Part shown: one piece after another, positions 5,278 to 64,000 of the stretch
Position numbering within the stretch: position 1 is the stretch's first letter
Layout of the letters: each line of letters starts with the position of its first letter
From: Owenia fusiformis
Taxonomy: Eukaryota
Assembly: GCA_903813345.2 (NCBI GenBank)
Contig: CAIIXF020000001.1
Location: forward strand, 2,542,001-2,606,000
DNA: 64,000 nt
Direction: 5' to 3'
Position numbers and translations under genes: made by a program
Notes under the pieces: model-generated
Databases searched by the model: none
What the model saw: the letters and a program-made list of their open reading frames with translations, nothing else
What the model was told of the DNA's origin: nothing

Positions 5278-8200
5278 TCAGTTGCATTTTTTGATTACCT
5301 TGTACCAATCCTTTATGTTTGGTTGAATAGCTTTCACATCAGTTTTGTTGTCCTTAAGAATACTGCATGCTATGGTGCCCAATAGGGGATGTTCAAGGGC
5401 AGCATGCTTCTGCATCTCTCCTGGGTCATTGAGGCAAACCTTACACATGTTGCACACATACAGGATCTTATTCTTCAGGTGCATTTCCCTGGAATATAAT
5501 TGGACAGTAAACATGTTGCACACATACAGGATCTTATTCTTCAGGTGCATTTCCCTGGAATATAATTGAACAGTTTACATGTTGCACACGTACAGGATCT
5601 TATTCTTCAGGTGCATTTCCCTGGAATATAATTGGACAGTAAACATGTTGCACACATACAGGATCTTATTCTTCAGGTGCATTTCCCTGGAATATAATTG
5701 GACAGTTTACATGTTGCACACGTACAGGATCTTATTCTTCAGGTGCATTTCCCTGGAATATAATTGGACAGTTTACATGTTGCCCACGTACGGGATCTTA
5801 TTCTTCAGGTGCATTTCCCTAGAATATAATTGGACAGTTTACATGTTGCGCACATACAGGATCTTATTCTTCAGGTGCATTTCCCTGGAATATAATTGGA
5901 CAGTTTACATGTTGCCCACATACGGGATCTTATTCTTCAGGTGCATTTCCCTAGAATATAATTGGACAGTTTACATGTTGCGCACATACAGGATCTTATT
6001 CTTCAGGTGCATTTCCCTGGAATATAATTGGACAGTTTACATGTTGTGCACATACAGGATCTTATTCTTCAGGTGCATTTCCCTAGAATATAATTGGACA
6101 GTTTACATGTTGCGCACATACAGGATCTTATTCTTCAGGTGCATTTCCCTAGAATATAATTGGACAGTTTACATGTTGCGCACATACAGGATCTTATTCT
6201 TCAGGTGCATTTCCCTGGAATATAATTGGACAGTTTACATGTTGTGCACATACAGGATCTTATTCTTCAGGTGCATCTCCCTGGAATATAATTGAACAGT
6301 TTACATGTTGCACACATACAGGATCTTACTCTTCAGGTGCATCTCCCTAGAACACAATTGTACAGTTTACATTACCTAGATTTAAACCTGTTTAGTTCAC
6401 AGCGTGCAATAATAAAGGACATTGTTCATCATGTGCATCTCCTTAAAATACTATAGTACAGTTCACATGTAACATTCATATTAAAAAGAATTAATCAAAA
6501 AATAAAATAATATAAAAGACCTTAAATTTATTGTACAGTTCACATGCTGCAACAATACTGGACATTGTTCTTCTTATTTTCTAATTTGTGTAACATAACC
6601 AACTTGTTCTTAGAGGCTTCAAAATAAAGATTTTCAGAAAAACCAGTGGCAACATTGACTTGTAAATTTAAGAGCATGGGTTCTATCATTTATTTTGTTC
6701 CTACTACTTACTAATTTGTTTAAACTTAAAGAATATACATAGACATTTATAAGGTGTTCATTGTTGGCGCCCACTATACATAGAGGTTTATGCTATTTAC
6801 ATACCTGTGTTGGAGAAAGAGCTTGGGCTTGGTATAGAACCTCTGGCAGACTGGGCACACATATAGATGGCGCTCTGTGCTATGTTTCACTGCCTCAGCA
6901 GAACTACAGAAGGTTTCACAACATATCTTACACACAAAATGGTTGTCAGTGGTGTTACCATTAACAATTGCATCTTTTGCCTTACGTTTTGTCTGTTTCG
7001 TATTCAAATTACAATCATATCTATGAGAATCTAATAGGGCCATCTCACAAAAAGTATTTTCAAGACTAAATTGTTTTGAACGTTGAATTTTTACTGCGCA
7101 TGAGTTCTTAACACCAACATTTGTGACAGTAGAAAGATGGTGTTCTTGGACCGCTTTTGCATTTGGAAATACCATATCACATAGAGTACACACACATTTT
7201 GTCTCAGTTTTGCCACACAACTGACGATGTAACAATAACCCATAATTATTGTAGCACCATTTGTCACATGTTTTACAGTTGAATGTTTTTTGATCATGGT
7301 GATAAGAATGCTGTTTGAACTGTTTTTCATTTTCGTGAACTAACCCACATTGAGTGCAGTACTTTTTATTCCGTTTGAACTTGCATACCAACCTGTGAGT
7401 GTACCATATGTGTCCCGTATCCGCTTGTCTACTACCTGCTCCACATACTCTGCAGAATGCCTTACAATACACAGCGCAATCGTTGACCCAATGCTTCACA
7501 ATACTCTCCTCTGAAGTAAAAGCAACTGAACAACACGGACACTTCTGGAACACATTACGGCTATTGTCAGTTGTAATATGTCCATTAGACTGAGAGTTCA
7601 TCTCTTTGACAGGTTCTTTTGATTTTGGCTCTTCCTCATCATTTTCGCCTGGTTGCTTGTCAAGAGAATCATCCTCTACATCCTTCAGAGAGTATGGAGT
7701 AGATATAAGACAAAGAGCCTTGCCTTCTGGGGCATCTGCATCATAATTGCAATCTACATCTATAGGCTCATCTTTGACGGTTATGGTGTCAATAGGTTCA
7801 TCTTTGATGGTTATGATATCAATGGGTTCATCTTTCACTGTAACTGTATTCTCATCAGTAGATTGAGTCTTGCCTGCAAGAACATGAGATTCAGATACCT
7901 TGTTTGAAGGCATCATTTGTTCATCAATATTTTCTACTGCTTCTCCCATTGCCTTTAACTTCGCTTCAAAGTCGTCTTCTTCATCATTTTGTATTTCACT
8001 AAAGCACTTACTGTATGATTCTGGTGCAGATATTTTGAATTTCATAAGCAGGTCTTTTCCTTCATCTTCACTCAATAAACAGACTTCATTATCTGGGATC
8101 TTTTTTCCCCATGCAAATTCTCCAACATGAATGAATTTATCTTTTGATTTTTCCATTTCATCGTCCTTTTCTGTTTTAACAGAATGATTTGCATAACACA

Positions 8201-11200
8201 GCCTTTCGTGTACTTCCTTAAATCTTTTGTTTTTACAGGGGAAAAGACAGTGTTTGCAAGACACGGATTTATCTTTTTCACATTGTAACTTGTGAGCATC
8301 TAGTTCACATTTGTGCTGAAACACTGTAAAACATTCGAAACAAGTATGTAATTTCCCATCAAGTTTAGATTGGCATTCTATTTCGTGGTGCATAAAGGGT
8401 TTCTTACCATTCTTGACATCAAACTGAATCGCACAACCTCTACATCTTTTCTTTGCATGCTCTTTCAGACACGAACAATGATGTTGTCTGAGCTTGCTAT
8501 AGGGCTTCACAAAATAACAGTTGATACATCTCAGGCCTACGCTTCCATCAGGTTTTACATTCGAATACTTCCCACTGGTGATTCCATTTCCACAAAATAA
8601 ACATGGCCAAGTTTCTCCAAGGCAAGATATGCACTTATCAATATTTGGTAATAGTTTAGCCTCAGTCGTTTTTATATAATGTTCTGTCGTGCAATTTGAG
8701 CTCTCACATTTTGTATATAGCTTTCCCTTAATATACTTTAACCTATTTTTTCCTTCACATGTGACTTGGATTTGAGACCTCGACTTTTGGACAGATTTTT
8801 TGTCACAGTTATCCAGATGCTTCTTAGCCATTTCTTTAGATTTAAAAGTCTGCTTGCAATACATGCATATAACATGAAATACACTGGCTACACAATCATC
8901 CTCATGGTGGAGCCATTGATAAGCATTCACCAACTGAAAAGCACAGAGCTGACATTTCATTTGATCTGTAGAACATTCAACAGTGTGTTCCTCAAGATGC
9001 TTTTGGGTACGAAGGAGCCTTTCACAAAGAAAGCACTCATATCTTGGTGTCTCTAAACACCCAACCTCATGCTCATCAAGTTCTTTCTGGCTTGGAAAAG
9101 CATCTCCACATCTCGTGCAGACAACAAGACCATCAGTGTCCAAGCTGCACACAACACAGTGCTTATTATAAGCATTCTCCTTGGAAGGTAAAAACAGTGT
9201 CATACAAACTCTACACCCAACAACTTTTGATGCTGGGACACAAGATGACTTTTGATGTTCGAGGAATGCCTGCTGAGGAAATGATTTCCCACAGCCAATG
9301 CATAAATGTAAATTTCCATCAACAACTTCAACATCATTATCTCCCTTCATATCTAGATTTCCTTTTGGTTGTGCATGTTTTTTCTGAATAAGGCTAACTG
9401 TACTAGTTTTCCTAGCAGCATCTGTTGAAGTTGAAGTTCCATCAGCAGGCTTTGGAATGATCATGGTTGGAGTTACACGCTTGGTATGTGCTGAATTAGT
9501 TTTAGGTAAAGAGGATATGACACGAGAAGTTGTAGACTGCTGGCCCAAAATTGATGAGGAAATATTGTTAACTAATGGCATAACTTCACTTTTTCCTACA
9601 ACATTTATCTGTGGATTTGTGTTCCCAGTTGAAGCAGATATTTGAAGTATTTTAACTGTATCATTAGTTATGGGTCCCATTTTTGGTAATTGCAGAGTTA
9701 TAGGCCCATTTATATTTCCCTTCACCACCAAGGCAGCAACAGTTTGACTTCCAGGAGTGACCGATTCTGAAGTATTCACTTTTGACTGTAAACTCAAAGG
9801 TTTCGACTGGCCAAGTTGACTGTTTGGTGAATGCTGAAGTTCACACCTCTTCATATGCTTCTTTAGTTGCTGTTTAAAAAAGATTCTGTTACAATGTTGA
9901 CATTTCACCCTTGAAGACTGCTTATTGTCATTGCCTCCGTACAGATTTCCCTCTTTGCACTGCATTTGATGGTGGCCTAAACACAATGGATTGTAGTAGA
10001 TGTAGCCACAAAACTTACAAGGGTACATTTTATTATCTTGAACATGTTTAGTTCTCATCTTACAGTTAGCCCAATGCTTGTGCACAAATTCATCAAGAAA
10101 GACAGTCTTACACAGCATGCATTTTAATCTTAGTGGATTTGCGTTATAATCTAAGACTGCTACGTTTCTAAATATCCAGCAGTCTTTCTCATGTTCAGCG
10201 AGTAGACGTGGAGTTGGGTAGACTCTGGTCTTTGAGCAATGGCAACAAAAGACTGTTTCTCCAGTTTTCCCATGTAATGATCCACAGCGTCCTTCATGAC
10301 TCAAAACATGATGAGGCTCTGTGAACTTTCTGTTACAAAATCTGCAATCTATCCACTTTATGTTTGCACTCTCTCTTTGACTAATTAGCTCAAGTTCATG
10401 ATCTGTAACCGAAAGAGCTGTATTGACTACATTCAACATTTCTTCACAAGCATTCTCATCCATTAAATCATCCACAATTACTACATCATTAGATTTTCCA
10501 TCTAATCTTGGCTTTTTATTTCTTGAACTAGCTTTATTTGGACTTCTTTTCCTAGATACTTTACTTATTTCAAAATCTGGATCATCCCTGATATCATCAG
10601 CTTGCCCTGGTTTAATAAGGTCATCTGAGTCTGCAGTATCACTAGAATAATTATAATCAGGATCTTCATCTTCATTTGTTACGTTATCTTCTGTTATTGT
10701 CTCATTATCATCATTCTCAGTATCATTCATGTCACCCAATCTTCTACACCCAAACTTCTGATGACTTTTGAAAGTGGTGATTCTCCCAAAGGACTTGCCA
10801 CACTCACATTTAAATCTTTCCTCGTTTTCATTAATCTTCGCTTTTTCATTGACCATTTTTGTATTAGTTGAATCCTCAGTATTTTGTTTAATATTATAAT
10901 TGCTAGGTGAGGATTTGTCTGTCGCCCTTTTCAAAGCAGCATGTGGTAGACTAGGGCAAGTGGTCAATTTAATACTATGGTCCTCCATGGATGGCTTACA
11001 TATCGCTTCAGTGGGTTTAAATCTAGGTCCGCATGGAGTCTTTTGAATATCAGAAAACATGGTATGTTTGAGTGGAGTATTGTCTTTAGCTGTAAGAGTT
11101 CTGGGGCCACAAGTCTTTTCTCTAGCAACTTGAGGAAGTATTTTATATTTATGTTTGAGTCCTTCTTTAGATGGCTCTTTATCTTTTTTCGCTCCCAGTA

Positions 11201-12158
11201 TTCCTCTTGTTACATTATATCTTGTTTCATCAACTGGTAACACAGGGGCATTGGTCTTGGCATCGAATATTTGAGAACTTCTTTTCACCCTTTCATTTGG
11301 TAAATCTGGAATGTTAAGTTTGAAGGATAACTCTTCACTATCATTCTCATCAATCTCCTTTTTTATAACCACTTCATCGGGCTCAGCCTTGACAGCGGCA
11401 TAACATATTTCATTTTTGTTATCTTCCATGGTGTCAGAAGGAGATACGACACATAAAGGTCCTTCACACATTTCCATATGTCTGTGGACTTGGAGTATGT
11501 TCACAAATTTTGCTGAACATTCACACTCATATATGTAATGTGTTTTTCTCAAAGTTGGTGACAATTTTCCATATTTCCCAGTACAATCTACTCTGTGATT
11601 ATAAAATGATGTCATATTCGCGAAGAGTAGTTTGCATGCACATTTAATTGTTGGCCCATTGTAAAATATTTGATTTCTATTGACATCCTGATCAATACTA
11701 TTTCTGCTCTTTGTTCTTGGAGCCGTATTATCATCATTAGCATCCACTTGATTCAAATTGATCTTATCTGCATTTGCACAATCAACAATTCCATCAGTAC
11801 CACCATTGTGAAATAGTTTCAAATTATCAGTAATAGCATGGACACAACTTACTACATGTTGCTCCCAATCCTTTTGATTTGTAAATATTTCAGTTGAATT
11901 ACATCTACTTGAACATTTCAATTCACCATTCATAGATTTCAATGTGGCAAAGTTGACACTAGCTACATCATTAACTACCTTAGGTGTAAGAACTATGGGG
12001 CAAAAGATGCAAGAATGATTCTTCGTGACTGAAACACATGACTGACAAGAATTATTAGAATTTAAAACACCACTTTCACCTTTCCCACATGTGTGACATA
12101 TGTTACCCTTCTGTATAATGCCATCCAAGCCTGGGTCCCTGGCACATTGTTTTGCCAT
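5278..12158 (-). CDS. Large multi-zinc-finger protein (many CX2C..HX3C fingers plus C-terminal C2H2 fingers); exons 12158-6805 and 5488-5278, 3' end uncertain
   Basis: 1794-aa ORF with dozens of CxxC...H motifs. Donor CAG|GTATGT after 6805 joins acceptor TTCCAG|G at 5488 in phase. This completes a split finger, CPVCQRFYTKPKLFLQHR-EMH, followed by YVCNMCKVCLNDPGEMQKHAALEH. An acceptor-like TTTATAG ending at 12186 suggests an upstream exon. Confidence 0.88.
5445..6372. repeat. 66-bp tandem array (~14 copies) duplicating the splice acceptor and first 44 nt of the zinc-finger gene's next exon
   Basis: Unit acatgttgcacacatacaggatcttattcttcaggtgcatttccctggaatataattggacagt(aa/tt), starting at 5445, 5511 ... 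6303. The reverse complement contains ...tatattccag|GGAAATGCAC. Confidence 0.95.
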
Positions 12159-12505
12159 TATGGATGCCTGGTACAGGTAATGTCCCTATAAATAGATATA
12201 TATGTTTAAACATACTACTGACGAAATATACCAATACGCGATAACGTTTAATTTCGTTCAGTTTAGCAACCTCTCGTTTGAAGAGCTCTCATGTATGGTA
12301 CAACTTCATCTACATCCGGGTTCTTTCCCATTGGATTACACAGGGGTGCTATTTTCAATGCCGCACTGCGGCTCTATTAAACATTTATGTAGAGTTTCAT
12401 TTGCACAAACGATAGGTATGTATGTAATTAAGATATATGACAAAGCAATTTGAGCTATAATCCCCAAATCCGAAGTAATGTGTAGTTAAAAATGCCGTCC
12501 AATTC

Positions 12506-22049: not shown

Positions 22050-22070
22050 AAAGTAGATTTCATATCTTAA

Positions 22071-24580: not shown

Positions 24581-25256
24581 GATTAGACCTATCAGTAAGC
24601 ATGTACCAAGGATGCAACACGCCTGTGTGTAACCTTGCACCATACTATGGATTGATCAATCAAAATAGTCAGCAGCAGCACCATCTATCTTATAAAATAT
24701 AGACTTGTATGTGTAGTTTAACATTGGTGTGGTAATCGAAACCTGACAAACCTAGTGAACCAAAAACATAAACTCATCCAATCATGGCGTAGTTCAATAC
24801 AAATGTAGGTCAAAATATCATTCGATAACATTTACACTTCAGAGATTCAAAGTTTAATCTTACCTCTGGAAAATTGAAAAACAAATGCTGATAACATTAC
24901 ACTTCAAAAGTTTTATGGTACTTATTGTACAAAAAGTGACAAAGTAACAAAAATACTCACATTCAAAATGTATATGCAGTCTTGCGGAATACGAAGCTTT
25001 CTGAATGAACTGATCCGAGAGGGGACATAGGATTGACTTACTTTATTAATCACCTTTTTGCTTTATAGACAGACAGGAAAATACAAACGTTGAAAGGTTT
25101 AAAAGTTTTTTTGTTCATAAATAGTCACACTAGGTAGTTGAATTCAAAAAATAATTATATAATTACATAATCAATGAAACGTGTTCTTAGTTCAAAGGTC
25201 AACTTCGTCCAACCTTCATCCCCTTCTAACAAGTAGCAACTATTTTTCTTTTCGAC

Positions 25257-28200
25257 ATGGCAGCAGAAGCGATATCAAAAGGTAAGCTTGTTATTTTGTT
25301 CAAATATGTCTCTCCAGCACAGTTTATAGAGACAAAACGTCCATTAGTTTAAGTCTAGTGTGCTTGTGTTACTACGAGTTACCGGTCCACTGGCATCGAA
25401 ACAGATAGTAGATAGTTGTCCCTGAAAAGAAATAAACAAGTCTCAGTGACTCAGTCTGAGTCTCTGAGTGTTAGCCTAGGACTAGCCTAGATCTAGTCCA
25501 ACAAGTTAAACACAGTCTTGATCATTGGGCTAATTTTTACCTGACATATCAACATGCTATCTACTGCAAGACTAACGCCTGGCATAACCGTTACCATGTT
25601 ATTCAGTGTTTTTAAGTAGCACAAGGATCCTGCCTTACCTTCTTCTAAGGCGACTGTATCGTGGCCTTCCAGTAAAGATATATTCCTGCATGAACAACTG
25701 GTCATGTCGTAATCATAAAATTTGAAATCATATGTCCGCCATTTTTCCACATCACAATTTGAATTCTCGAAATCGTTGTTCCCTCTTCAAAAGAGGAGAC
25801 GCGAAAATCTTTCCTTATAAGGTCAAACTATTTCCCATGATGCAGTTCGCGGAGGAACAAATTTATACTTCCTTGTTTTCCCTCATAGGTTTAACATGGG
25901 GATTTTCACACCTATTTTTCAAACGATATATTCGTTCATATTCCCGTACGAGAGTACAGAAAAAATTATTAGAAACGATTGATCTCTTATTAATCTTAAT
26001 GTAACAGCTATTTTTTTCATTGTATTGATTCATAGCGTGGTATAAAACGACGATTGAAAAGTGAGAAAATATTCCGGAAGAGAAGGTCACGTGATCAGTT
26101 GACAAGTCGCCATATTGGAAAAAACAATTCCATTCGACTTTCAATACTTTCATGCCAATCTTACCGCATTACAAACTGCAACATCGATGCAACAACTGAA
26201 TAAAAGTATTCATCTTCAAATCATATTATAGAGTTACGTTAAAAACCCACAGACAACTGAGCAGTTGACCAAAGAAGACGCGTCGCTAATATCTAGGTCA
26301 ATCTGTTCTGTGGTCCGAAAGCAAATCTATAGTACTCGTTTCCGAATTTTGTTGTTCATTGTACAATCTTTTATTGATTAAACTTGGTATACTGACTATT
26401 AAAGCAATGACAAAGAAGAATACTTCCGATGGTGTCATTGTTTTATTTAGCGTGCGGTTGTAAAAACAAAATTGCGTAATTAGTTTGATTTAGAACTTTC
26501 GGGTCACGCAAATAGCTACGCGAAATGCATAGTGGGAGAATATTGACCAATCAAATTTTGTCCTTTTTGAGTGCTTTTTTAGAACATATTTGCGAACGTT
26601 CTGATTCAAAGAGCGAACCGCGAAAGGGAGAATTGCAAGTTTTAGTCTTATTACCTCACCAAAAATTCCAAAACACACATAAAGTGATCAGTGTATTAGT
26701 TCACATTCAACCTTTTGGATCGCTAACTTAGAATTTACAGCCAGTTACTAATGTCAGACGTTAAGGTACAGCTGGAAAGTAACATTTTGGTAAAAAATTG
26801 CTATACCTGCACATGTTATTTTCTGGTACAAAATAAAGTATGAAGGCATGTATCAATTTCCTTGCTTTTTTCAGGAAAGTATCATTACATTGTCTTCTTT
26901 TAGAATATCTGGTAGGCGTTCAAAGGGAACTCCAGGGAATTCTGATATTTCACACTTCCTGTTTTTCCAAATTTTCTTTCAAAGTTTCCAGACAACACAG
27001 GAGCTACCATTGACCTGTTTCCAGGTTTACTAAAAGTAGACAGTGTAATGATACTTTCCTGAAAAAAGCAAGGAAATACACACATGCCTTCATACTTAAT
27101 TATGTACCAGAAAATAACATGTGCAGGTATAGCAATTTTTTACCAAAATGTTACTTTCCAGGTGAACCTTAACGACATTTCGTCCAGTTTTCGAACATCG
27201 CCATTTTTCTTGGAGCCATTTTGTTTTAAATTTAGACGAAATCCTGATGAAATCATGTCATATCTCATCAAGGAGCCGAGCGGGGTCCGTTTTGATTAAT
27301 GATTTATTTATCCGGCAATTTTTAAAATATTCAATAAATTTATGACAAGGCGGCCAGCTTTTTTCAAATGGAGTTCACAGTATCCCAGATGAAATCCCCT
27401 CTAGCCAAGTATTGGCTAGAGACTCGAGTAAATCCTACCATGACCGTGGTAGTGTTATCGTAAAAGCCTGGTATTACCGCGACAATGCTGTATTATATTG
27501 CAATGCCTGCCATGAAAGTGGTAGTGTAATCGTGTAAGCCTGGCGCGACCGTAACTTTTATATGACATTCATGTTTCGTCCGTTATTTTTTACGGAGTGG
27601 CTCCAGGACCGACAATTGTCGGTACTGGAGACTGTCCAGGGGTATTTGCTGGGGTACCGACAATTGTCGGCACTCTATCGTCACCTAGTAGTGTCAGATA
27701 GAGAACCGACAATTGTCGGTACGCAAGTTGCTGCTACGTGTTTTTGCTAGAGAGCCGACAATTTCATAAATAAATGCACTACTGTTAATTTCAGGAATAA
27801 CCTCATCTCTGGTAGTCTAGTGGTTAGCGAGCACGACTCGAACACACTCGGGCTCGAGTTCGAATCCCGGCAGGACCTACTTTTTTCTTTTGAGGGGGGG
27901 GCATAGTGCTTCTTTTGCAGTATGGAATCGTACAGGCATTAACTTGTAGTGAGCCATAATTTATTTCGACAAAAATTGATTCAACTTCCATCAAAATTGT
28001 CCTACAAGCTTCAATTAAAAAACATTTTAAAGCTCTTTTCTTGTTCTATCTAATGGGTCGATATATACAATTAGGGGAGGGGATGCTTTCGCCCCCGTCG
28101 ACCTCTACCTTTACTACGCCATGGCACAGGAGAAATATCTCATTAGGAATATATCACTGTTTACTTTGCGTTTGGTAGCTCTCTCATGCGAGATGGAATC

Positions 28201-38069: not shown

Positions 38070-38210
38070 GAATTTACATATTGTGCCATCACCCTATGGA
38101 ACCCCAACAAAGTGAGAATTTACATATTGTGCCATCACCCTATGGAACCCCAACAAAGTGAGAATTTACATATTGTGACATCTCCCTATGGAACCCCATC
38201 AAAGTGAGAA
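38022..38210 (+). repeat. 46-bp tandem repeat (x4) spanning the last 15 codons and the stop codon of BLOC1S5
   Basis: Unit gagaatttacatattgtgccatcaccctatggaaccccatcaaagt at 38022, 38068, 38114 and 38160; TGA is formed at each unit junction. Confidence 0.95.
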
Positions 38211-40703: not shown

Positions 40704-41609
40704 CAGGGTGTTCAAAAAAAACGCAACCCAAGGAAATCGCTATATCTTGGAAAATACTCATCAAATTATGTTTATATTTTCAGGAAAGAAAGAAGAGACT
40801 GTATGTATAGCTCCTGTTGTTAGTTAGTTGTAAAACATGATGTCTTGGACATTTGCTCAAAAAACAGTTGTACTAGCAAAATACGAAAAACGTGAATAGA
40901 AAATCACTATATCTTGGAAAATACTAATTCAATAATGTTCATTTTTTTCAGGAAAAGAAAGAAGAGACTGTGTATGTATAGCTCCTGTTGTCAGTAAGTT
41001 GTAAAACATGATGCCTTGGACACCTGCTCATATGACAGTTGTTCTAGGAAAACATGAAAACGCAGTCAAAGGTGACTGCCACAGCAATAAAACCAAAAAA
41101 TAACTTTCTAACCATGGTGTTTTGGCACTTCAGATTTGGCACAAATTATCCTCATTCAATGTGTGGTGAATTTGTGGAGTTTCATCAAAATCACTCCAGG
41201 GACTTTACAGTCATGGTCAAAATGCCTTCTTAAGTCTCCCTGAACCAGGGCGTTTGACTGCGATTTGAAAGCATTTCAACCATTAATGTAAAGTTCCTGA
41301 AGTGATTTTAATTTCACTCTGCAGATTTACCATACAGTGAATGAAGATGATTTGTGCCAAATTTGAAGAGCCAAAACACTATGGTTAGAAAGTTATTTAA
41401 TTTTTTTGAGGTTGCAGTCACCCCGGACTGCGTTTTTCGTATTTTCCTAGTACAACTGTCTTTTGAGCAGGTGTCTAAGGTATCATGTTTTACAACTAAC
41501 CATTTACAGGAGCTATACATACACAGTCTCTTCTTTATTTCCTGAAAATATAAACGTAATTGAACCAGTATTTTTCAAGATATAGCGATTTCTTTTTTTG
41601 AACACCCTG
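40704..41609. mobile_element. Tc1/mariner-like MITE (TA TSD) nested in an older TIR element (~40590-41870)
   Basis: TA|CAGGGTGTTCAAAAAAA ... TTTTTTTGAACACCCTG|TA; outer inverted arms at 40590-40662 and 41793-41868. Confidence 0.85.
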
Positions 41610-42202: not shown

Positions 42203-44281
42203 CTAACGCTTTCCTGCATTCGTGCCACATTCAGCTTTGCAGTCTATTTCACGGACAAAATTATTTCGGTTTCCCCTGCACCCTCCGTAAGTGAACTTGG
42301 TACATTTGGTGCCGTCCCAATAGTATCTGGTATACGCAGCCTTACATGGCCCTACTGTCATTGGTAGGGAACAAATATTTGCGTTGCCTTCTGTGCCTGA
42401 AACAATTGACAAGTCAGATTTTAATTGTTATATAGGTGTTAGCTGCTCAAGTACAGGGTGGGACAAAATTGTAACCCCTGAAACAAATGTTAATAACCCA
42501 GTCATCCAGCATGAGTTTTACCTTATATTTGGCATAATTCCACCAAGTTTCACTGGTCTACTCCAAATAGTCATATCCTCGTATGGCCATTAACAAAACG
42601 TGCTCCAAATGCCGAAACATGCCAAAATATGAACCCCTAGAATTTTATCTTTTGGGATATTTCATAGATAATATCTACAGTTACAACCATAGAAGCATCA
42701 GAGAGTTGAAACAACAGATTAGAAGGAAAGAGAGAGAGCCATCACACAAGATATCTGTGAGTGTGTATCCCCTGATGCGTTCAATTTGTCTCTTGAGACT
42801 AGACCGCATTTTGACTAAATGCATGTTTTGTTAAGGTGCCATGGAAGTTAACAGGAAATGACAAAACAGGAAGTGACAAAGCCATGCTGGATTTTGATGA
42901 CCGGGAACACAACGGAAATGGTCAGAATGACCATAAACATGATGAAATAACCTTTTCAGCCCTCTGAAAATGTGACTGAAAAACAGCTAAGAGCAGGTGC
43001 TCAGGAAAGGTCAGTGTACAGAATCTTTCGATTTTTTCAGAAAACGTGTCCAACATATTGCTCTAAATGATACAATCTTTGAAATTTTAAAAAATTGTCT
43101 GAAACAATAATGGCTGTAGTAAAAAGGTAAATCGATCGATTTTCAATTCAGTTTTTTTTCATTTTTTTCTTTTTCTAAGAATGATATCAAATTTTTTTAA
43201 ATTGTATCATTTTAAGCAATATATTGGGCGGATTTTCTGAAAAAATCAAAAGATTCTGTTCAGTGACCTTTCCTGAGCACCTACTCTTAGCTGTTTTTCA
43301 GTCACATTTTCAGAGGGCTGAAAAGGTTATTTCATCAAGTTTATGGTCATTCTGACCATTTCCGTTGTGTTCCCGGTCATGTAAATGATATGTGGAACTA
43401 GTTAAACTGACTGGAGGTCCAAACAGAACTCTGTTATCTTGGTTCAAAAAAATTTCAAAATCCAGCATGGCTTTGTCACTTCCTGTTTTGTCATTTCCTG
43501 TTAACTTCCATAGCACCTTAAATGGCCACAAAATCGTATCCATTTGGCACAGTCCAATAAACATTGAACAAGGTTCAGGATAACATTTTGGCCCATCCTG
43601 TAAATCACTGGCTGAACAAAAATATAATAGGTATTACAAAAAGGCCCCGTGTTTGTTCCCCGGGTCCTCAACTTTGTATTGGTATGAGTGTAGTCTATAT
43701 CCAAACGACTGAATTTCCTGAGAATATTTTGATTCCATATTTCAAAGAAATTTCAGACTAGAGGATATAGTCTAGAGTCCATTTCACTGGTTCATTTCGT
43801 CAGTAGAACGGCAAAAATAAGAAATTGGGAGACCATTGTGCAATAATATATGGAAAAGTATATTCATAATGTACATGAATGACATTTGTATATCTTGGAT
43901 TGCTTCTAGTTTGGCTTATAAAGTGTGTGGCCTCTTATATTTGGATGTTTCTCTGCCATGTTATTTTCAATAAGATTAACATGGCTGAAATTCTTCAAAT
44001 TACAAGACGGCACAGGCTTATTGCACAAAAAACTAAAAAATCTGAAATAAACAAATGTCATTCATGTACATTATGAATATACTTTTCCATATATTATTGC
44101 ACAATGGTCTCCCAATTTCTTATTTTTGCCGTTCTACTGACGAAATGAAGCTGTGAAATGGACTCTATAGGAACTGAAAGTAACATTTATTGCACTGTGT
44201 AAAACGGTTTATCATATTATTCTTACCTGATATATGTGCAAAAACTAACATGGCCAACAAAATAACATTCAGCCTCAACAT
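42203..44281 (-). CDS. Secreted single-domain Kunitz/BPTI-type serine protease inhibitor, 82 aa; exons 44281-44227 and 42396-42203
   Basis: Exon 1 encodes the signal peptide MLRLNVILLAMLVFAHIS and ends at G|GTAAGA. Exon 2 (after TTTCAG, phase 1) encodes a six-Cys Kunitz motif, ICSLPMTVGPCKA...FTYGGCRGNRNNF...C...C. Minus-strand AATAAA at 41990-41995. Confidence 0.93.
42454..43600. mobile_element. Tc1/mariner-like MITE in the Kunitz intron
   Basis: TA|CAGGGTGGGACAAAAT ... ATTTTGGCCCATCCTG|TA; large internal inverted repeat (~42830-43520). Confidence 0.8.
43773..44167. mobile_element. ~395-bp TAGAGTCCATTTCAC MITE, copy 2
   Basis: Near-identical reverse complement of 15872-16266. Confidence 0.85.
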
Positions 44282-54400: not shown

Positions 54401-57400
54401 CAGGTGTTTGTTAGAGTAGGAGAACATAGCAAAGATGCTTCAGAGCCAAGCCAAAGGAACTATGCTATCAACAGATTTGTCATACATCAACAGTACATCA
54501 GCAGAACCCTCAACAATGATATTGCTCTATGGAGGCTTGAGGAACCTGTACAGATGTCAGATGAAGTGAGTTCAGTATGCTTGCCTGACACAGGGGATGT
54601 CCCACCTGGCACATTCTGTATGCTCACTGGATGGGGAACTATTATAGGTACAGTGGTAGAATTTTATTTTAGAAGATAATATGAAAATAGATTGATTGTA
54701 CCGCCATCTTTATTTAAAGATAACCTTTATTGACATTGAGCCTATGAATGGAATCTTTAGTTTTTATTAGCTTCCAAAATAGTTTTCTTTGATTTAATCA
54801 GAGGGTGGAGCTACTGCAAGAATTCTCCAACAGACAGATCTTCCAATTGTAAGTACGCAGGAGTGCAATCAAGCGGACTGGTATGATGGAGATATTAAGC
54901 CTGGAATGGTTTGTGCTGGCCATGAGGAAGGAGGAACAGGTTCTTGCCATGTAAGTGAGAACAACTAGAGACCAGAAATCCTCAGTCCATTATTCTCTTA
55001 CTATGACATCAATATCTCTATGGTTACATAAGTTGATTTAGGAATTCTTTAACATTTTACGAAGTTTCTGTAAATAGCTCTGAATTCCTTTTAAAAAATC
55101 ATGGATATCAACTTAATGCTAACAATTATTATATGCTTATATGCAGGGAGATAGTGGTGGCCCCTTGGTGTGCAGATATCCTGATTCCAGCTGGGAGCTT
55201 TATGGTATTGTAAGCTGGGGAGCAGTATGTGCTGGGGCCAAAACTCCTGGAGTATTTGTCAGAGTGCCTTACTACATGGATTGGATTAATCCAAGACTGA
55301 CATGTAAGTATTTGTTCTTGTGATTTTACAAGGTTTTGGGCAGATTTAAAGATGGCAGCAGAGGTCGTATTTTATTAAAAAGAAGATAATGTTAATTAGA
55401 TCAATCGCACTATCATCTTTATTAAAAATTATTTCTATTAATCAAGCCTATGTGATTTTGGTTCTCAAAAAAGTTAAGACATTATTAGCTTTAGTAATGT
55501 ACTCCTTGGAAATCCTCAGCTTATTTAATTATGTTCTCTATTTAGTACCAGCCCTGCCCCCTCTCCCCGAGGCTTGCAGTAGCCAAGTTATTGTGTCTAC
55601 AACAGAAGACCTTGTCTTCCCACGATACTACGACTCTCCCAATGAAGATGACATGTACAGGAACCAGCTGACTTGTGAATGGTTAATACAGGCACCACCT
55701 GGAGAGGTATATGCATGTTCCGTGTTTCAATGTTTTTTCATTGTCTTTCATATCAGGCACTATCAGGCACTATCAGGCACTATCAGGCACTATCAGGCCT
55801 CAGGTTGGGCCGGGCTGTAATGTCAATCTTCTAGCTTGGATGATACCATGAGTACAAGTGAAAAAATAAACATTATAATACTGAATCAAGTGTATATGTT
55901 TCTTGTTAATATATTGCTTAACCATTCTGTGATGATTTATGGTTCATGGTTCAAGGGCTAATGATTAACAAATTAGCCAATCAATTAATCTATCAACAGG
56001 AATAGAATGTAATCTTCCAAAATTACAACTTTATTGCTTCAAGTGAATATGTAAGTCCCCTGGGGTTGAACTAGACAAAATTATCATCTTTCAATTGCAA
56101 TTCAATAATTAAATTTCAATATATGGAGGAAATAAGTTCTAACTTGTATACACTGCCCGGGCAACGATACTCAACGGTGAACAACACCACAAACGAGCGT
56201 TCGATTTGCTAAACGATATGCGTCACCCTTTAATGACCTGATTGGCTTTCATGATCTTTAGCCTTGGAATTATTGTATCCTTTGATATTTTCTTCACAAT
56301 AATTCAAAGAGCAGATGTGAAACTGTGCAATACTTTTTTTAGTGATAAGACTGAATTTTCTTTGCAGAATGTTATATTTAGCATCTACAGTCTCTCTGTT
56401 GAATATCACGAGCAATGTTATTTTGACTCCGTAAGTCTTTATGATGGTTCATCAGAGCAAAATACACAATTAGGAAAACACTGTGGCACTTCACCTCCAC
56501 GCACAAAAACGTCGACAGGAAGGAACATGCTAGTAGTGTTTAAGTCAGATGGGTCTATAGGAGGACGAGGCTTCAAAGCATCAATATCTTTTACTGGTGA
56601 GAAATATTCCAATCCAATTTTTTACCTTAAAAATTATTCATATTTGATGTTTTATTGATGCAGCATGTACATTAATAAAGTATTCTATTTTAAAGGGTCT
56701 TTTCATGATAAAACATTATAATTGGAGCAGGATCCTTTAAATCTTAAATTAAAATTGTCTTTTGGAAAATTTTGACATGTCTCTCTCACCATGTTCATTT
56801 TTTGATATTTTGAACTAGTGGTGTTGTATTGGTTTCAGATGATACAGGAACAACAACGGCCCCTGTAACAACAACAGCCCCTGTTACAACAACAGCCCCT
56901 ATAACAACAACAGCCACTGTAACAGAACCCCCAGTCACCAGTCCATCCACCACAGATTCCCCAGTTACTAACCCACCTAGTACAGGTTTCAAAGACTCCT
57001 GTTTGCGCATACACAATTTGAAGAGAGCCCTTCATGAGGACACACCTAATGTGATATACTCCGACACACTTGCAGTTTCTGCCCAAACATGGGCAAATCA
57101 CCTAGCTGCTACTGATAGCTTTGAACACTCAAGTGCTGACAATTATGGAGAGAATTTATATCGCTCTTCGAGTACTCAGCCATTAACTCCTGATTATTGT
57201 TCAACGGCAACTTCAATGTGGTAAGAACAGTTTTTTGTATGGGAATTTGAGGTATAGAAAGTACTAACTAGAGTACTGCCTCGTAATGCCAGGTCTACTT
57301 TATCTTATGCCATTGTGTGATTCATACAGTTTTACACTTAGATATCAGGAATATGCAAAATGACACATTTCATTTAGGTACTGAATAACAATTAGTTTTT

Positions 57401-60400
57401 GTCTTTACCCAAAGTATTTTTGAAAGGGGTATACTGTATAAATCAACTGATTTCAAATAATATGACTCATATTAATTCACACAGTTATACTTCCAGGTAT
57501 GATGAAATAAACCAGTATGACTACAATAACCCAGGATTTAGTGGAAACACAGGTCATTTTACACAGGTAAGTACAATAAAATAGAGTTTCAATTCATCAT
57601 AACTATTTAATTTAAGCTAGTGTAGTACTAATAAGTTAAATAAACTTGCAGTCATCAGGGTGTGGTATCAGGCCTATTGGTGATATATGAATGTTAATCT
57701 CTTATATGGTTGAAATAATCAGGATTTTTTTGGCCATGGTGCATCATTAGGATTTTAGACATGCTGGTCAAAGATGAACTATGGGCCAGTAGCAATGTAA
57801 TTTTTCTATACATGCTAAAAAGTAAATTGCACCTTGTTTTTGTCTTGCTGTAGGTTGTTTGGGCAAGCACATTGGAGATTGGATGTGGAGAAACCATATA
57901 CACTACACCTGATGGTAGTTGGAACAGAGTTGTGCTGGTTTGTCAGTACAGTCCACCTGGAAACTATGGGAACCAATTCACCAGTAATGTTAAACCACTT
58001 CTTTCAGGTGATTCCTAGCTTTTGTTATACAATTTTATACACAATTTTGTTATTCAATTTTACAATGTTTGCATTAATATTCCTCATTGACATTGAGTGT
58101 AAAGGCTGATCAACTATTGTGTGGTCCTTGGAATAACTCCTTTAATCTTCTAACAATCTTACTATACTGTTACACTTGTAAGTATATATCCTGACATTTA
58201 CTACATCTACAAAGGATGAGTCTGGGAATGAGTCTGGGTATCGACTTAGAAAATATTGAAAATTGTTATGTCTGAAAAACCAACTCAATCACACATATTA
58301 TTAAACTTCAATATCTTATCCTTCTTCTGAGAGTACAAAAATATCAATTTTTATCACAATTAATGAAAAATATTGGCATCAAAGACAGTGCATATCACTT
58401 TGTCAGAATTGAAAAAAAATCAATGGCAAATATTAAATGAATTATTTATACAAAGGGTTTAAAACATATCCTCCAAAACATTGCTTACTTTCTTTGTATT
58501 ATGACATTGAATGGCATTTCTGGATAAGTGAATTGGTGTTTATCTGGGTAATCAAGGGATTATAGTCACTCAAAGTTACTGAGCATCCAGTTTTGAGACT
58601 TCAATTGTGTTAGTGAAGTTACACATATTTCAGTCAAATTCATGCTGAGCACAACATTCCGGTTTCAATTTTATAATCTCTATACATGACCCTGGTGATG
58701 AAGAGTCAGAATCAGTCAAAAAACCTAAACCGGAAAACTGTGCTCATTGTGAAAACTAAAAGTGAAGCAACTTTTTTCTGATATTTCTTACATCAAATGG
58801 CAGCCATCTTGTTTTTTCCCCTTCAAATTAAACTGGCGGGAAATTCAAAAATTTGAAAAAAATTTTAATCCTTAAATATATTTCAAAAATATGATTTTCT
58901 TTTAAATTCTTCATGGGTCTTAAGTTATTTCTTCTTTGCAAGTCATACATGTTGCCATTGATGTTTTTATTCTATGATAATGACTACTTTTTTTTGTTAA
59001 GATACTTATTCTGACTCTCAGCAGGGGGTTAATTATGCATCAAAACTCGTGAAAAAGTAAATAAACTTATCAAATATAACTAGGACAGTAATAAAAAACA
59101 TATTTAACATACATTTGACTGAGGGACCAAAAGGTCCCTATATCTTGGCACTGGTAGTTTTAAGAATATAGTATTTTGTTATTAATAGTGCCAAAGCCAG
59201 AATCTTGATTTATGCAAGGCAAATTACTACTAGATATACATGTAGTAAGGCCAATAAGAGTGCTTAAGTATTATTCAAAAACTATGTTGATAGTTACTGT
59301 AAAATTTTTATGAGGAATCTGCACCCTAATTGAGATCATTTTACCAACTAATTCATTTCAATTTCAAAATCTGATACAACCAAACTACAGCATCAATTTT
59401 TATAAACCAGTAAAATGTTGATATCGTCTTTTTCATCATGTTCATTTAGTTGATATTTTGAACATGTTGTATTGGTTTCAGGTGATACAGGAACAACAAC
59501 AGCCCCTGTAACAGAACCCCCAGTCACCAGTCCATCCACCACAGATTCTCCAGTTACTAATCCACCTACTACAGGTTTCAAAGACTCCTGTTTGCGCATA
59601 CACAATTTGAAGAGAGCCCTTCATGAGGACACACCTAATGTGATATACTCAGACACACTTGCAGTTTCTGCCCAAACATGGGCAAATCACCTAGCTGCTA
59701 CTGATAGCTTTGAACACTCAAGTGCTGACAATTATGGAGAGAATTTATATCGCTCTTCGAGTACTCAGCCATTAACTCCTGATTATTGTTCAACGGCAAC
59801 TTCAAAATGGTAAGAACAGTTTTTGTTTGGCAGTTTGAGGTATAGAAAGAACTAACTAGAGTACTGCCTCGTAATGCCAGCTCTACTTCATCTTATTCCA
59901 TTGAGTGATTCATACAGTTTTACACTTAGATATCAGGAATATGCAAAATGACACATTTCATTTAGGTACCAAATAACAATTTGTTTTTGTTTTTTCCCAC
60001 AGTATTTTTGAAAGGGGTATACTGTATAAATCAACTGATTTCAAATAATATGTAAAACTCGCATTAATTCACACAATTATACTTTTAGGTATGATGAAAT
60101 AAACCAGTATGACTACAATAACCCAGGTTTTAGTGGAAACACAGGTCATTTTACACAGGTAAGTACAATAAAATAGAGTTTCAATTCATCATAACTACAT
60201 AATTTTAGCTATTGTAGTACTAGATTAGTAAGTTAGATAAACTTGCAGTCATCAGGGTGTGGTATCAGACCTGTTTGTGATATTTGAATGTTAATCTCCT
60301 ATATGTTTTCAAATAATCATCTAATTCATATTAAAACTCCTTCATTCTTGTCATCTGGGCTGGTACTGTAATTGCACCATTGTTACTATGCTTCCTAGTT

Positions 60401-62043
60401 CATGAGTAAGTTTGAAAACATAATTGCCCAATTTAACCTATTGACATGCAGTCCATTGCCCAAAAGGCAACTCATTTTCCAAGTTCATTACCAAGATTGT
60501 AACTGATTGCCAGTCAGGCAACTGTGGGTCTAAACCTTGTCATTGTGTTCCTTTATTACTGTTAGGCTATAATGTTGAATGTAACTGATTAGACACTGTC
60601 TGTGTCATCACTCATGATTCTTTTGGCCAGTGTGCATCATAAAAATTTTAGACATGCAGGTCAAAGATGAACTATGGGCCAGTAGCATTGTAATTTTTCT
60701 ATACATGCTGAAAAGTAAATTGCACCTTGTTTTTGTCTTGCTGTAGGTTGTTTGGGCAAGCACTTTGGAGATTGGATGTGGAGAAGCCATATACACGACA
60801 CCTGATGGTAGTTGGAACAGAGTTGTGGTGGTTTGTCAGTACAGTCCACCTGGAAACTATGGCAACCAATTCATCAATAATGTTAAACCACTTCTTCCAG
60901 GTGAATCCTAGCTTTTGTTATTATTATACAATTTTGGAATACAATGTTTGAATTAGTATTCCTCCTTGACAGGAGTTCAAAAGTTGATCAACTATTGTGT
61001 GGTCCTTGGAATAACTCCTTTAAACTTCTAACAATCTTACTATACTGTTACACTTGTAAGTACATATCATGACATTTACGACTTCTAAAAATTTTGTCCC
61101 TATATTTTGGCACTGGTGTATAGTTTTAAGAATACAGTATTTTGATTATTAATAGTGCCAAAGCCAGAATCTTGATTTACACAAGGCAAATTACTACTAG
61201 TAAGGCCAATAAAACTGGTTAGGTTTTATTTGAAAACTATGTTCAATATGTTACTGTAAAACGTTGGTGAGAGATCTGCATACTGATTGAGATCATTTTA
61301 ACTAATTCATTTCAGTTTCAAAATTTGATACAACTAAACCACAGCAAAAACCAAAACTGGTTAATACAATTTTTATAAAACCAGCCGTATAACATTGATT
61401 TATTTTTGTTTCAGTTGAAACATGTGGAGTTGGCATTGTGCCCAATGGCAGAATAGTTGGAGGATCTGATGCAGTGCCGTACAGCTGGCCCTGGATGGCG
61501 ATGCTGACCACTGACTGGGGATCACAATTTTGTGGCGGAACTCTCATTGATAGGAATTGGGTGATAACGGCTGCTCATTGTACATCTGGGTAAATATATA
61601 ACTGCATACTAGATGTTTCAGTCTTTTTGACATCCTTGTATGCTTAGTCTTCCCTGCGTTCAGACCAATGGAAGCCAGGTAAATGAAGATGTCTTGGAAG
61701 GTTCTGCCCATGATACCAAAGTCTTAAAATCACATTGACCCTCATATTATTAACAATATTATTCTAATACCCTAAAATTGTTTCAGAATGGACCCCTGGG
61801 ATGTGATTATAAGACTAGGTGAATACTCGAAGACAGATGATGAACCCCTGACGCAAGTAATTCCTGTCATTCAAATCATTAATCACCCTGAGTATGACCC
61901 TGAAACCACAAACAATGATATATCCTTGCTGAGACTTGGAGATCCAGCTGAGCTGAATGGTTATGTTGAGAAGGCATGTCTTCCTGCAGCAGAGCCTGAA
62001 CCAGGACGTGAATGTGTCGTAACTGGTTGGGGTACCACTGAAG
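45500..62043 (+). CDS. Ovochymase-like secreted polyprotease, 3'-partial (>=1611 aa): SP-CUB-CUB-Tryp1-CUB-Tryp2-CUB-Thr-rich-CAP-Thr-rich-CAP-Tryp3
   Basis: 24 in-phase GT-AG exons: 45500-45584, 47448-47572, 49488-49725, 50139-50278, 50409-50661, 50823-51045, 51244-51506, 51734-51876, 52012-52335, 52608-52845, 53632-53887, 54388-54647, 54802-54950, 55147-55303, 55546-55706, 56368-56596, 56839-57220, 57497-57566, 57854-58007, 59482-59809, 60089-60158, 60747-60900, 61415-61589, 61787-62043. Protease motifs: R|IVGG, K|VVNG, TAAHC, DLAML/DIALW/DISLL, GDSGGP. CUB motifs: CxWxI, FxSD..GF. CAP motifs: HNxxRAx[22 protein letters not shown]. Confidence 0.9.
45718..46160. mobile_element. Transib-like MITE (CAC termini, 5-bp TSD TGTAA) in protease intron 1
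   Basis: TGTAA|CACGCCCGGTGAT(T/C)GTACAAAAATGATGG ... CGGGCGTG|TGTAA; ~48-bp TIRs. Confidence 0.8.
46240..47256. mobile_element. CAAAGGAT..ATCGATATGG-family MITE with a nested TTAA-flanked insertion (~46290-46545)
   Basis: Reverse-complement relative of ~22481-23213, which lacks the insert at tctcttaa|accagtcatc. Confidence 0.7.
48770..49170. repeat. ~91-bp intronic tandem repeat (~4.5 copies)
   Basis: Recurring gcattttcaaaaagctttacattggccatattcctttacattcttggacttag. Confidence 0.85.
53011..53083 (+). pseudogene. Degenerate tRNA-Lys-like sequence (pseudo-tRNA or SINE head)
   Basis: GCC...ATAGCTCAGTTGGTAGAGCATCAGACTTT closely follows the eukaryotic tRNA-Lys(TTT) 5' half. The anticodon stem, T-loop (GGTACGATT) and acceptor stem are damaged. 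Confidence 0.6.
55751..55798. repeat. 10-bp minisatellite (TATCAGGCAC) x5
   Basis: Read directly from the sequence. Confidence 0.9.
56790..61345 (+). repeat. Recent intragenic tandem duplication of the three-exon Thr-rich+CAP module, including introns
   Basis: ~56790-59400 vs ~59435-61345: exons near-identical, introns alignable apart from copy-specific indels. Confidence 0.9.
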
Positions 62044-64000
62044 GTAATGTTGCAATTGTGTTGTAATTGGTTGGGGTACCACTGAAGGTAATATTGCAGT
62101 TGTGTTGTAACTGGTTGGGGTACCACTGAAGGTAATGTTGCAATTGTGTTGTAATTGGTTGGGGTACCACTGAAGGTAATATTGCAGTTGTGTTGTAACT
62201 GGTTGGGGTACCACTGAAGGTAATATTGCAGTTGTGTTGTAACTGGTTAGGGTACCACTGAAAGTAATGTTGCAGTTGTGTTGTAACTGGTTGGGGTACC
62301 ACTGAAGGTAATGTTGCAATTGTGTTGTAATTGGTCGGGGTACCACTGAAGGTAATATTGCAGTTGTGTTGTAACTGGTTGGGGTACCACTGAAGGTAAT
62401 ATTGCAGTTGTGTTGTAACTGGTTGGGGTACCACTGAAGGTTATTTTGCAATTGTGTTGTAACTGGTTGGGTTACCACTGAAGGTAATATTGCAGTTGTG
62501 TTGTAACTGGTTAGGGTACCACTGAAAGTAATGTTGCAGTTGTGTTGTAACTGGTTGGGGTACCACTGAAGGTAATGTTGCAATTGTGTTGTAATTGGTT
62601 GGGGTACCACTGAAGGTAATATTGCAGTTGTGTTGTAACTGGTTGGGGTACCACTGAAGGTAATATTGCAGTTGTGTTGTAACTGGTTGGGGTACCACTG
62701 AAGGTTATTTTGCAATTGTGTTGTAACTGGTTGGGGTACCACTGAAGGTAATATTGCAGTTGTGTTGTAACTGGTTAGGGTACCACTGAAAGTAATGTTG
62801 CAGTTGTGTTGTAATTGGTTAGGGTACCATAGAAGGTAATTTTGCACTTGTGTTGTAACTGGTTGGGGTACCACTGAAGCTAGTATTGCAGTTGTGTTGT
62901 AACTGGTTGGGGTTTGACTGAAGGTAATATTGCAATTGTGTTTTAATTGGTTTGAGTACCACAGAAGGTAATGTTGCAATTGTGTTGTAATTGGTTAGGG
63001 TACCACCGGAGGTAATTTTGCAATTGTGTTGTAAGTGGATGGGGTTTGACTGAAGGTAATATTACAATTGTGTTGTAACTGGTTGGGGTTTGACTGAAGG
63101 TAATATTGCAATTGTGTTGTAATTGGTTAGGGTACCACTGAATGTAATATTGCAATTGTGTTTTAATTGGTTGGGGTACCACAGAAGGTAATATTGCAAT
63201 TTTTTTTAACTGGTTGGAGTACCACTGAATAGTCCATTTGTCATCCCTATACATCCAATAGTGAACCTAGAAATTGTTAAAAGTACGATGTTTTATGGTC
63301 GATTTATGATAATAAGAGTTTTCTGAAGTGATTTAACTGGCTTGGGCAAAAAATTATATAGGCTGATTAGGGAGGGGTGCAATCGTTTAACATGGCGTTG
63401 ACTATTGACTTAGTGTTGGGATACCACCATATACCTGGTATGTTACCATGGTAATAGATACAAAATTTTTCCCCAAAGTTATTTTTTTGGCAACCCAGCT
63501 AAATCACTCCCATAATCCCTAAAGATAGTATTTACACAGAAAAACATCATACTTTTAAATATTTATACGTTCAGAAAATGACAAATGGACTAGAAGGTAA
63601 TGTTGCAATTGTGTTTTAATTGGTTGGGGTACCACTGAAGGTAATGTTGCAATTGTGTTTTAATTGGTTGGGGTACCACAGAAGGTCATGTTGCAATTGT
63701 GTTGTAATTGGTTGGGGTACCACAGAAGGTAATGTTGCAATTGTGTTTTAATTGGTTGGGGTACCACAGAAGGTAATGTTGCAATTGTGTTGTTATTGGT
63801 TGGGGTACCACAGAAGGTAATGTTGCAATTGTGTTTTAATTGGTTGGGGTACCACAGAAGGTAATGTTGCAATTGTGTTGTAATTGGTTGGGGTACCACA
63901 GAAGGTAATGTTACAATTGTGTTTTAATTGGTTGGGGTACCACAGAAGGCAATGTTGCAATTGTGTTTTAATTGGTTGGGGTACCACAGAAGGTAATGTT
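62013..64000 (+). repeat. 44-bp tandem array (>=36 copies, runs off the window) duplicating the end of protease exon 24 plus its splice donor
   Basis: Unit tgtgttgtaactggttggggtaccactgaag|gtaat(g/a)ttgca(a/g)t; 264-bp higher-order periodicity. Confidence 0.97.
63230..63592. mobile_element. MITE with TAGTCCATTTGTCAT TIRs and 3-bp TSD GAA (Academ-like), inserted in the 44-bp array
   Basis: accact-GAA|TAGTCCATTTGTCAT ... ATGACAAATGGACTA|GAA-ggtaat; every neighbouring unit shows the empty site. Confidence 0.85.

Follow-up and report, generated by a model that had tools for sequence, protein, structure and literature searches.

Why should the largest tandem arrays of a genomic region lie across the boundaries of exons, so that a splice site is copied with each unit? 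The question is raised by a 64,000-nt stretch of the genome of Owenia fusiformis (assembly GCA_903813345.2, contig CAIIXF020000001.1, positions 2,542,001 to 2,606,000, forward strand), called the window below; all coordinates are positions within it. Three short-period arrays with units of 44-66 bp each contain a splice junction of a protein-coding gene: an acceptor in a C2H2 zinc-finger gene (array 1), a donor in the gene for BLOC1S5, or Muted (array 2), and a donor in a CUB-trypsin protease gene (array 3). Given these identities, the three host genes are unrelated and the host organism is an annelid. A smaller array (array 4) straddles the stop codon of BLOC1S5.

This pattern had been noticed in an earlier examination of the letters and open reading frames of the window, referred to here as the sequence-only reading. 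It offered a mutational mechanism linked to RNA-processing boundaries, a system of decoy splice sites acting through nonsense-mediated mRNA decay (NMD), and a neutral account in which exon-overlapping duplications survive only when they spill into an intron or an untranslated region (UTR). Of these three, the neutral account fits best. We regard the arrays as minisatellites of the kind described in amphioxus as mirages, that is, as by-products of tandem duplication across exon boundaries that were amplified by unequal exchange and are tolerated, the exon-nearest site being the one used. We assign this reading a probability of about two in three.

Arrays at exon boundaries

Tandem Repeats Finder (TRF), run over the window (G+C content ~36%, zero N), returned 35 rows. 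The highest score, 3190, belongs to the 52-bp period of array 2 (32.8 copies, 33147-34846, 97% matches). Second is the 44-bp period of array 3 (27.7 copies, 62013-63229, score 1888); it resumes at 63592-64000 (9.3 copies, score 762). The 66-bp period of array 1 (14.1 copies, 5445-6372, score 1632) ranks third among the junction arrays, and the best array unrelated to this trio scores 582. The window holds 11 distinct arrays with at least three copies: three span a splice junction, one spans a stop codon, one with an 18-bp period lies in a coding exon, and six are non-coding. The junction trio has the highest copy numbers in the window; the non-coding arrays reach 7.6 copies at most. The TRF ranking, the junctions of two annotated proteins and the exons of trypsin paralogues together confirm that each of the three top arrays straddles a real exon edge with its splice site. 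Where an annotated protein was found, in two of the genes, it uses the exon-adjacent site, as had been proposed.

Array 2 lies in the BLOC1S5 gene. The last coding exon, beside the 46-bp array 4, matches Pfam Muted (3.4e-10), and an unnamed protein product of O. fusiformis (P0001, 162 residues), a BLOC1S5 homologue, shares 99% identity with the product of that exon. P0001 maps to four exons (25257-25281, 33107-33189, 36324-36453 and 37819-38069) and joins exon 2, at the donor of the first array copy, to exon 3 at 36324. The features of this gene are:

33107-33189, plus strand: BLOC1S5 exon 2, with the exon portion of the first array 2 unit in its last 43 bases
33147-34866, plus strand: array 2, 33 copies of a 52-bp unit made up of 43 exon and 9 intron bases
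36324-36453, plus strand: BLOC1S5 exon 3, to which the first-copy donor is joined
37819-38069, plus strand: last coding exon of BLOC1S5, ending in TGA at 38067-38069
38022-38210, plus strand: array 4, 4.1 copies of a 46-bp unit, straddling the BLOC1S5 TGA at 38067-38069

In the present register, the array 2 unit divides into 43 exon and 9 intron bases, not into 42 and 10 as first given; the divisions proposed for array 1 (22 intron and 44 exon bases) and array 3 (31 exon and 13 intron bases) were correct. The donor GAG/GTAAGT (boundary at the slash) is kept in 29 of the 32 full copies. Copies 8, 31 and 32 carry a G to C change at +1, and copy 33 is degenerate. Reading on from any later donor leads to a TGA at the eighth codon. 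The order of variants along the array is structured: copies 2-8 resemble copies 9-16, and a block of about seven units has therefore been duplicated inside the array. Recursive-splicing sites were also looked for in the unit by eye, and the idea was rejected, as no acceptor stands directly before the GT, with weak exceptions in copies 17 and 19.

The presence of a fourth array across a stop codon was likewise borne out. Its unit comprises the last 45 coding bases of BLOC1S5 and the T of the TGA; the stop is re-formed at every unit junction, and the 3' UTR holds the additional copies. One GAGAA stands at the start of the unit and another immediately follows the array, which constitutes a microhomology.

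Array 1 belongs to a gene on the minus strand (1448-12158) that matches an Owenia C2H2-type protein of 2205 residues (P0003). P0003 splices the upstream exon, with its donor after 6805 on the minus strand, onto the exon-adjacent acceptor at 5488.

5445-6372, minus strand: array 1, 14 copies of a 66-bp unit (22 intron and 44 exon bases) containing the 3' splice site of a zinc-finger gene exon
5299-5488, minus strand: authentic zinc-finger exon from the mapping of P0003, of which the first 44 bases (5445-5488) also serve the exon-adjacent unit as its exon part
6412-6573, minus strand: two relics of the array 1 unit, both decayed (6412-6470 and 6530-6573), distal to the array end
6805-12158, minus strand: upstream coding part of the zinc-finger gene, with its last donor after 6805; the annotation also excises ~7238-6942

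Read in the sense of the gene, the unit consists of 19 intron bases ending in AG, 44 exon bases and 3 linker bases. All 14 copies keep the acceptor AG (CAG in nine, TAG in five). Of the 13 alternative acceptors, 12 yield an in-frame TAA; the remaining one, nearest the exon, would add an in-frame insertion of 22 residues (open frame 5278-5574, minus strand). The sequence ATGT..AA is found 22 bases upstream of the acceptor and again at exon positions 41-48, and the stretch preceding the most distal unit closes with it too. Had the first duplication come about by slippage between two short direct repeats at a distance of 66 bp, a microhomology of this kind would be its expected footprint. The relics align to the unit with local scores of 43 and 36, compared with a maximum of 33 in 100 shuffles, and the mean distance between copies is lowest at lag 2. 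Units 2 and 4 (5573-5510 and 5705-5640) end in TTA rather than AAA. With this ending the in-frame TAA is lost, and a branch-point-like TTTAC comes to lie ~20 bases upstream of the next acceptor, the authentic one included.

The plus strand from ~49.5 kb to the end of the window encodes CUB, trypsin and CAP domains, and one of its trypsin exons carries array 3.

61787-62043, plus strand: trypsin-domain exon (Pfam Trypsin profile positions 43-130, 6.9e-18), whose last 31 bases supply the exon part of the first unit
62013-64000, plus strand: array 3, at least 37 copies of a 44-bp unit (31 exon and 13 intron bases), running off the window
63230-63592, strand not assigned: insertion of 363 bp that splits copy 28 of array 3; its 15-bp terminal inverted repeats are perfect, and GAA stands on both sides

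An annotated Owenia protein for this protease was not found, the single match being a beetle protein with 36% identity. Two paralogous trypsin exons in the window end at profile position 129, compared with 130 for the array 3 exon, and in all three a phase-1 donor follows a GWG motif at one and the same codon position. The first-copy donor of array 3 is therefore the conserved intron position of the family. In the 35 copies scored, which leave out the interrupted copy 28 and the cut last copy, GT is kept in 33 and the authentic 9-mer in 25. Read-through past the first donor meets a TAA after 7 codons (open frame 61776-62066). The first 18 copies form a six-unit higher-order repeat, with variants common to copies 1, 7 and 13, to copies 6, 12 and 18, and to copies 10 and 16. 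The 363-bp insertion looks like a non-autonomous DNA transposon, and array 3 is therefore old enough to have been struck by an element of a mobile type.

Several other features were seen in and near this region. The three trypsin domains on the plus strand have an identical exon structure, and two sets of CAP exons (56814-57224 and 59454-59813) are near-identical. A Kunitz/BPTI domain exon is located at 42203-42427 on the minus strand. At 40734-41060, a 171-bp unit present in 1.9 copies includes a block resembling an exon, preceded by an acceptor-like TTTTCAG and followed by GTAAGT, and is a candidate duplicated exon.

Founding and growth of the arrays

We picture the history of these arrays as follows. 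A segment of 44-66 bp that happened to span an existing exon boundary (a 3' splice site in one case, a 5' splice site in two and a stop codon in one) would have been duplicated in tandem, probably by slippage or unequal exchange between short direct repeats. The duplicates would then have been amplified as single units and multi-unit blocks were exchanged unequally. The extra copies could persist on the non-coding side of the boundary, and arrays touching coding sequence would survive only if they are in frame or spill into non-coding sequence. The splicing machinery, finally, would keep to the site nearest the rest of the exon and leave the other sites silent or nearly so, and the arrays would be close to neutral. 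Exon-definition or 'first site' behaviour of this sort was demonstrated by experiment for the intron 7 repeat of human F7.

The higher-order structure seen in arrays 1-3 is of the sort that unequal exchange produces. The proposed selection filter is supported by the stop-codon array together with three arrays situated wholly within coding exons, all of which have periods that are multiples of three, as determined from TRF and the open frames:

2190-2365: in-exon array, period 84 bp, encoding a 28-residue peptide repeat
7758-7835: in-exon array, period 30 bp, encoding a 10-residue peptide repeat
56849-56924: in-exon array, period 18 bp, encoding a 6-residue peptide repeat

How often chance alone would place arrays on junctions was calculated under an assumed 60-80 splice junctions in the window, a number that we estimated from two mapped proteins and the domain-bearing frames. 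A random founder unit of 54 bp then covers a junction with p ~0.05-0.07, and the binomial probability that at least three of 11 arrays span one is 0.016-0.034, a post hoc value from one window with an estimated junction count. This suggests an excess of junction arrays in the window that is nominal and not established.

An excess of this kind is what one would look for if a mutational process tied to RNA-processing boundaries, acting during transcription or splicing, preferentially founded or expanded arrays there. We consider this explanation unlikely, even though three of the 11 arrays span junctions and these are the three largest. In amphioxus, too, the arrays recur in several genes, and a passage of PMC3087553 calls their origin unclear. 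Array 4, however, is at a stop codon, and stop codons are not sites of RNA processing; the three in-frame arrays are located inside exons. Eighteen boundaries in the window were probed for low-copy duplicates in their vicinity, and none was found besides those at the array boundaries. Nor do the units share a convincing motif. In pairwise local alignments of the four units, five of the six scores remained below the shuffle maxima, and that of arrays 3 and 4 equalled the maximum of 200 shuffles. A common motif was rejected on these grounds, in agreement with the original impression that the units have no sequence in common. The GC skew of the units on the coding strand is inconsistent as well (0.04, 0.40, 0.40 and -0.26), and an explanation through R-loops was dropped for this reason.

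A further argument for a junction-linked process is polarity. Divergence was measured as the edit distance of each copy from the exon-adjacent one and related to distance from the exon by Spearman correlation. It rises with distance in array 1 (rho 0.68, p 0.011), whose distal relics are decayed, and in array 3 (rho 0.40, p 0.018); in array 2 the trend is not significant (rho 0.25). The statement that the copies farthest from the exon look most degraded thus applies to arrays 1 and 3 and is not borne out for array 2. Relic copies were also sought in the flanks of arrays 2 and 4, where none was found. The end copies of tandem arrays usually escape homogenisation. Here only the far end decays, because the end copy on the exon side is held by selection, and the same polarity is therefore also expected from a selected exon-side copy and a decaying far end. 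Growth from the exon edge, as envisaged by the sequence-only reading, finds no support in arrays 2 and 3, in which multi-unit blocks were duplicated in the interior and not at the exon edge. Unequal exchange following chance duplication accommodates these blocks. Concerted evolution with diverged edges, a trait of mirages, is evident from the higher-order repeats, the degenerate last copy of array 2 and the relics of array 1.

Possible use of the copied splice sites

Alternative splicing coupled to NMD, by way of poison exons or poison sites, relies on alternative sites that introduce premature stops. The copied sites could act in this manner: decoy or poison splice sites, variable in copy number, would divert pre-mRNA to transcripts with a premature stop and so tune the output of the gene through NMD. 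Sites of usable sequence are indeed present in most copies (all 14 AG in array 1, 29/32 donors in array 2 and 33/35 GT in array 3), and the expectation that nearly all alternative sites lead to a premature stop was confirmed: 12 of the 13 acceptors of array 1 do so, as does every alternative donor of arrays 2 and 3, within 8 codons. Still, we judge such a function quite improbable. The copies of arrays 1 and 2 are young and homogenised (95-97%), so that retention of their sites needs no selection. Positions within the splice sites are no less variable than others. In array 3, 7 of 9 donor-site positions vary, compared with 15 of 35 other positions; in array 1, the corresponding figures are 3 of 12 acceptor-site positions and 9 of 54 others. 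Splice motifs that are no better kept than the rest of the unit argue against maintained decoys. Their variability offers at most a weak hint that the extra sites are eroding.

Transcript evidence comes from BLOC1S5. Three raw RNA-seq runs carrying the same species label and one DNA run (X1) were compared with the stretch 25000-33700, which takes in the first 10.6 units of array 2. At position 33129, in the unique part of exon 2, the three runs have 20, 16 and 22 RNA reads in the direction of the gene. The mean depth is 3.64, 2.66 and 4.84 at 33148-33438, a bin that takes in the last 42 exon bases, and falls to 1.71, 0.39 and 0.05 at 33439-33700, deep inside the array. In bins of the upstream intron it is 0.69 or less. 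By our own arithmetic, the depth in the array interior amounts to 0.2-9% of that in the exon. The small depth inside the array in two of the three runs could be taken as a sign of decoy use, but spliced reads beginning within the repeated part of the exon match several copies and can produce it, as can unspliced RNA. With neither extra conservation of the sites nor a sign of their substantial use in RNA depth, regulation through decoys and NMD receives no positive support. Identical pseudo-sites in human F7 are silent according to passages of PMC1557585, and the mirages of amphioxus gave no aberrant mRNAs in the cases covered by passages of PMC3087553 and PMC3902484. We infer that the extra sites of arrays 1 and 3 are silent as well, or nearly so.

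At position 33129, the RNA reads in the direction of the gene show G in 20/20, 15/16 and 13/22 cases, and the window and X1 have A. This difference is most simply a polymorphism between individuals.

The DNA run also bears on whether the arrays are real, since their presence in raw reads had been proposed as a check. In X1 the summed word depth rises from 76 beside array 2 to 944 inside it, and a contig from this run bears a 2-base deletion variant of copies 17 and 20; array 2 is therefore multi-copy in the reads, although X1 is possibly the assembled sample and so not independent proof. Over-expansion of the repeats during assembly is very improbable given these reads, the structured variants and higher-order repeats among the copies and the transposon-like insertion within array 3, even if reads were checked for array 2 alone and the DNA word depth there, ~8-12 times that of the flank, is below the expectation for 33 copies if every word were shared.

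Intron 1 of BLOC1S5 (25582-32274) stands out in the same data, with a summed word depth of 1e5-7e5 in X1 compared with ~50-80 for unique sequence. Its repeats are high-copy, transcribed, with RNA reads from both directions, and transposon-derived. The intron also contains a near-identical tandem duplication with a period of ~960 bp, which is apparent from two pairs of identical open frames (28398-28679 with 29358-29639, and 28863-29150 with 29823-30110).

Some observations weigh against tolerated by-products of chance duplication. Three of the 11 arrays span junctions (P 0.016-0.034), and these are the largest and most homogeneous arrays of the window; pure neutrality does not obviously explain why the three largest should be in this state. 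The microhomology at array 2 is ~3 bases long. Both the distal end of array 3 and the downstream exon of its gene lie beyond the window. The RNA support in BLOC1S5 consists of depth and not of junction counts, NMD would hide products of the downstream donors, and the RNA evidence covers array 2 alone of the three junction arrays.

Related systems and significance

Whether arrays of this kind had been described before was a question raised by the sequence-only reading, and two published systems answer it. In amphioxus, minisatellites spanning exon-intron boundaries, termed mirages, occur in Adh3, troponin C, the globins BflGb6 and BflGb9, and PGBD5 (passages in PMC3087553 and PMC3902484). According to these passages, which cite Canestro et al. 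2002 as the founding paper, mirage units measure 10-160 bp and are unstable in length, and regular splicing is undisturbed. Mirages have been known since 2002, yet the globin paper of 2010 (PMC3087553) still called their mechanism unclear; it has been suggested that they supply material for the gain and the sliding of introns. In the amphioxus globin clusters, diverged cluster edges are excluded from homogenisation (passage in PMC3087553). The second system is intron 7 of human F7, where a 37-bp variable number tandem repeat (VNTR) has a first unit that spans the exon 7 donor. Its 5-9 identical donors are functional, and minigenes demonstrated that the most upstream one alone is used (passages in PMC1557585).

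The Owenia arrays resemble amphioxus mirages in most respects. The unit lies across the exon-intron boundary, and both 5' and 3' boundaries are affected; most copies keep their AG or GT, and the authentic copy is contiguous with the exon. Judging from the annotated proteins of two genes and the fall in RNA depth after the first donor of BLOC1S5, regular splicing may be retained in Owenia too; cluster edges are outside homogenisation, and the unit lengths of 44-66 bp overlap with the reported 10-160 bp. The arrays differ from mirages in their annelid host, in their copy numbers (14, 33 and at least 37, compared with 3-6 units for BflGb6) and in the stop-codon-spanning array that accompanies those at splice junctions. 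Length polymorphism and somatic instability have been reported for the Adh3 mirage of amphioxus, whereas the Owenia arrays are known from one assembly.

With the F7 repeat, arrays 2 and 3 share a first unit that contains the authentic donor and is followed by copied donors downstream, and the host of array 3 is, like F7, a protease of the trypsin family. By analogy, F7's use of its most upstream site may provide the mechanism by which the Owenia arrays are tolerated. The donor sites number 33 and at least 37 in Owenia, compared with 5-9 in F7, and the acceptor array has no counterpart there. Site choice was deduced from annotation and RNA depth in the former and from minigenes in the latter.

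Two further comparisons are less close. In intron gain or sliding by tandem duplication over AG/GT (the Rogers model; passages in PMC3087553, PMC3265369 and PMC2812944), splice signals are also copied and duplicated exon sequence turns intronic. That model, however, implies a new intron bounded by duplicated AG/GT in a former exon. The introns pre-exist in all three Owenia genes, as indicated by the intron position common to the trypsin paralogues and by the annotated junctions of the other two genes; no new intron or exon is seen, and the duplications are many-copy rather than single. Poison sites acting through NMD are similar in that the alternative sites of Owenia would introduce premature stops; the extra sites in Owenia are copies of recent origin rather than conserved elements.

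Elements of this kind are thus already known, as mirages and as the F7 repeat. No report of mirage-type arrays in annelids was found in the literature searched, in which the relevant mirage papers all concern amphioxus, and the literature found on tandem repeats of O. fusiformis contained no description of such arrays; passages of the Owenia genome paper deal with the assembly and the RNA-seq-guided annotation (PMC9977687).

It is conceivable, if rather unlikely, that large, homogeneous minisatellites are in excess at splice junctions across the genome of O. fusiformis, as in amphioxus, owing to a founding or expansion process associated with junctions. Such a process could be mutational or could reflect selection for multiple U1 or U2AF binding sites. 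If so, it would be at work in distantly related marine invertebrates, and array copy number could modulate productive splicing. The window is part of a 62-Mb annotated sequence and public RNA-seq runs exist, which makes enrichment, site use and the effect of copy number testable on a genome-wide scale.

In practical terms, arrays of this type are traps for gene prediction and read mapping. They also offer natural experiments in the choice of a single splice site where dozens are identical; in array 1, the functional acceptor is the last of 14 reached by the polymerase. That three such large arrays occur in a 64-kb stretch of annelid DNA suggests that the phenomenon is not confined to cephalochordates.

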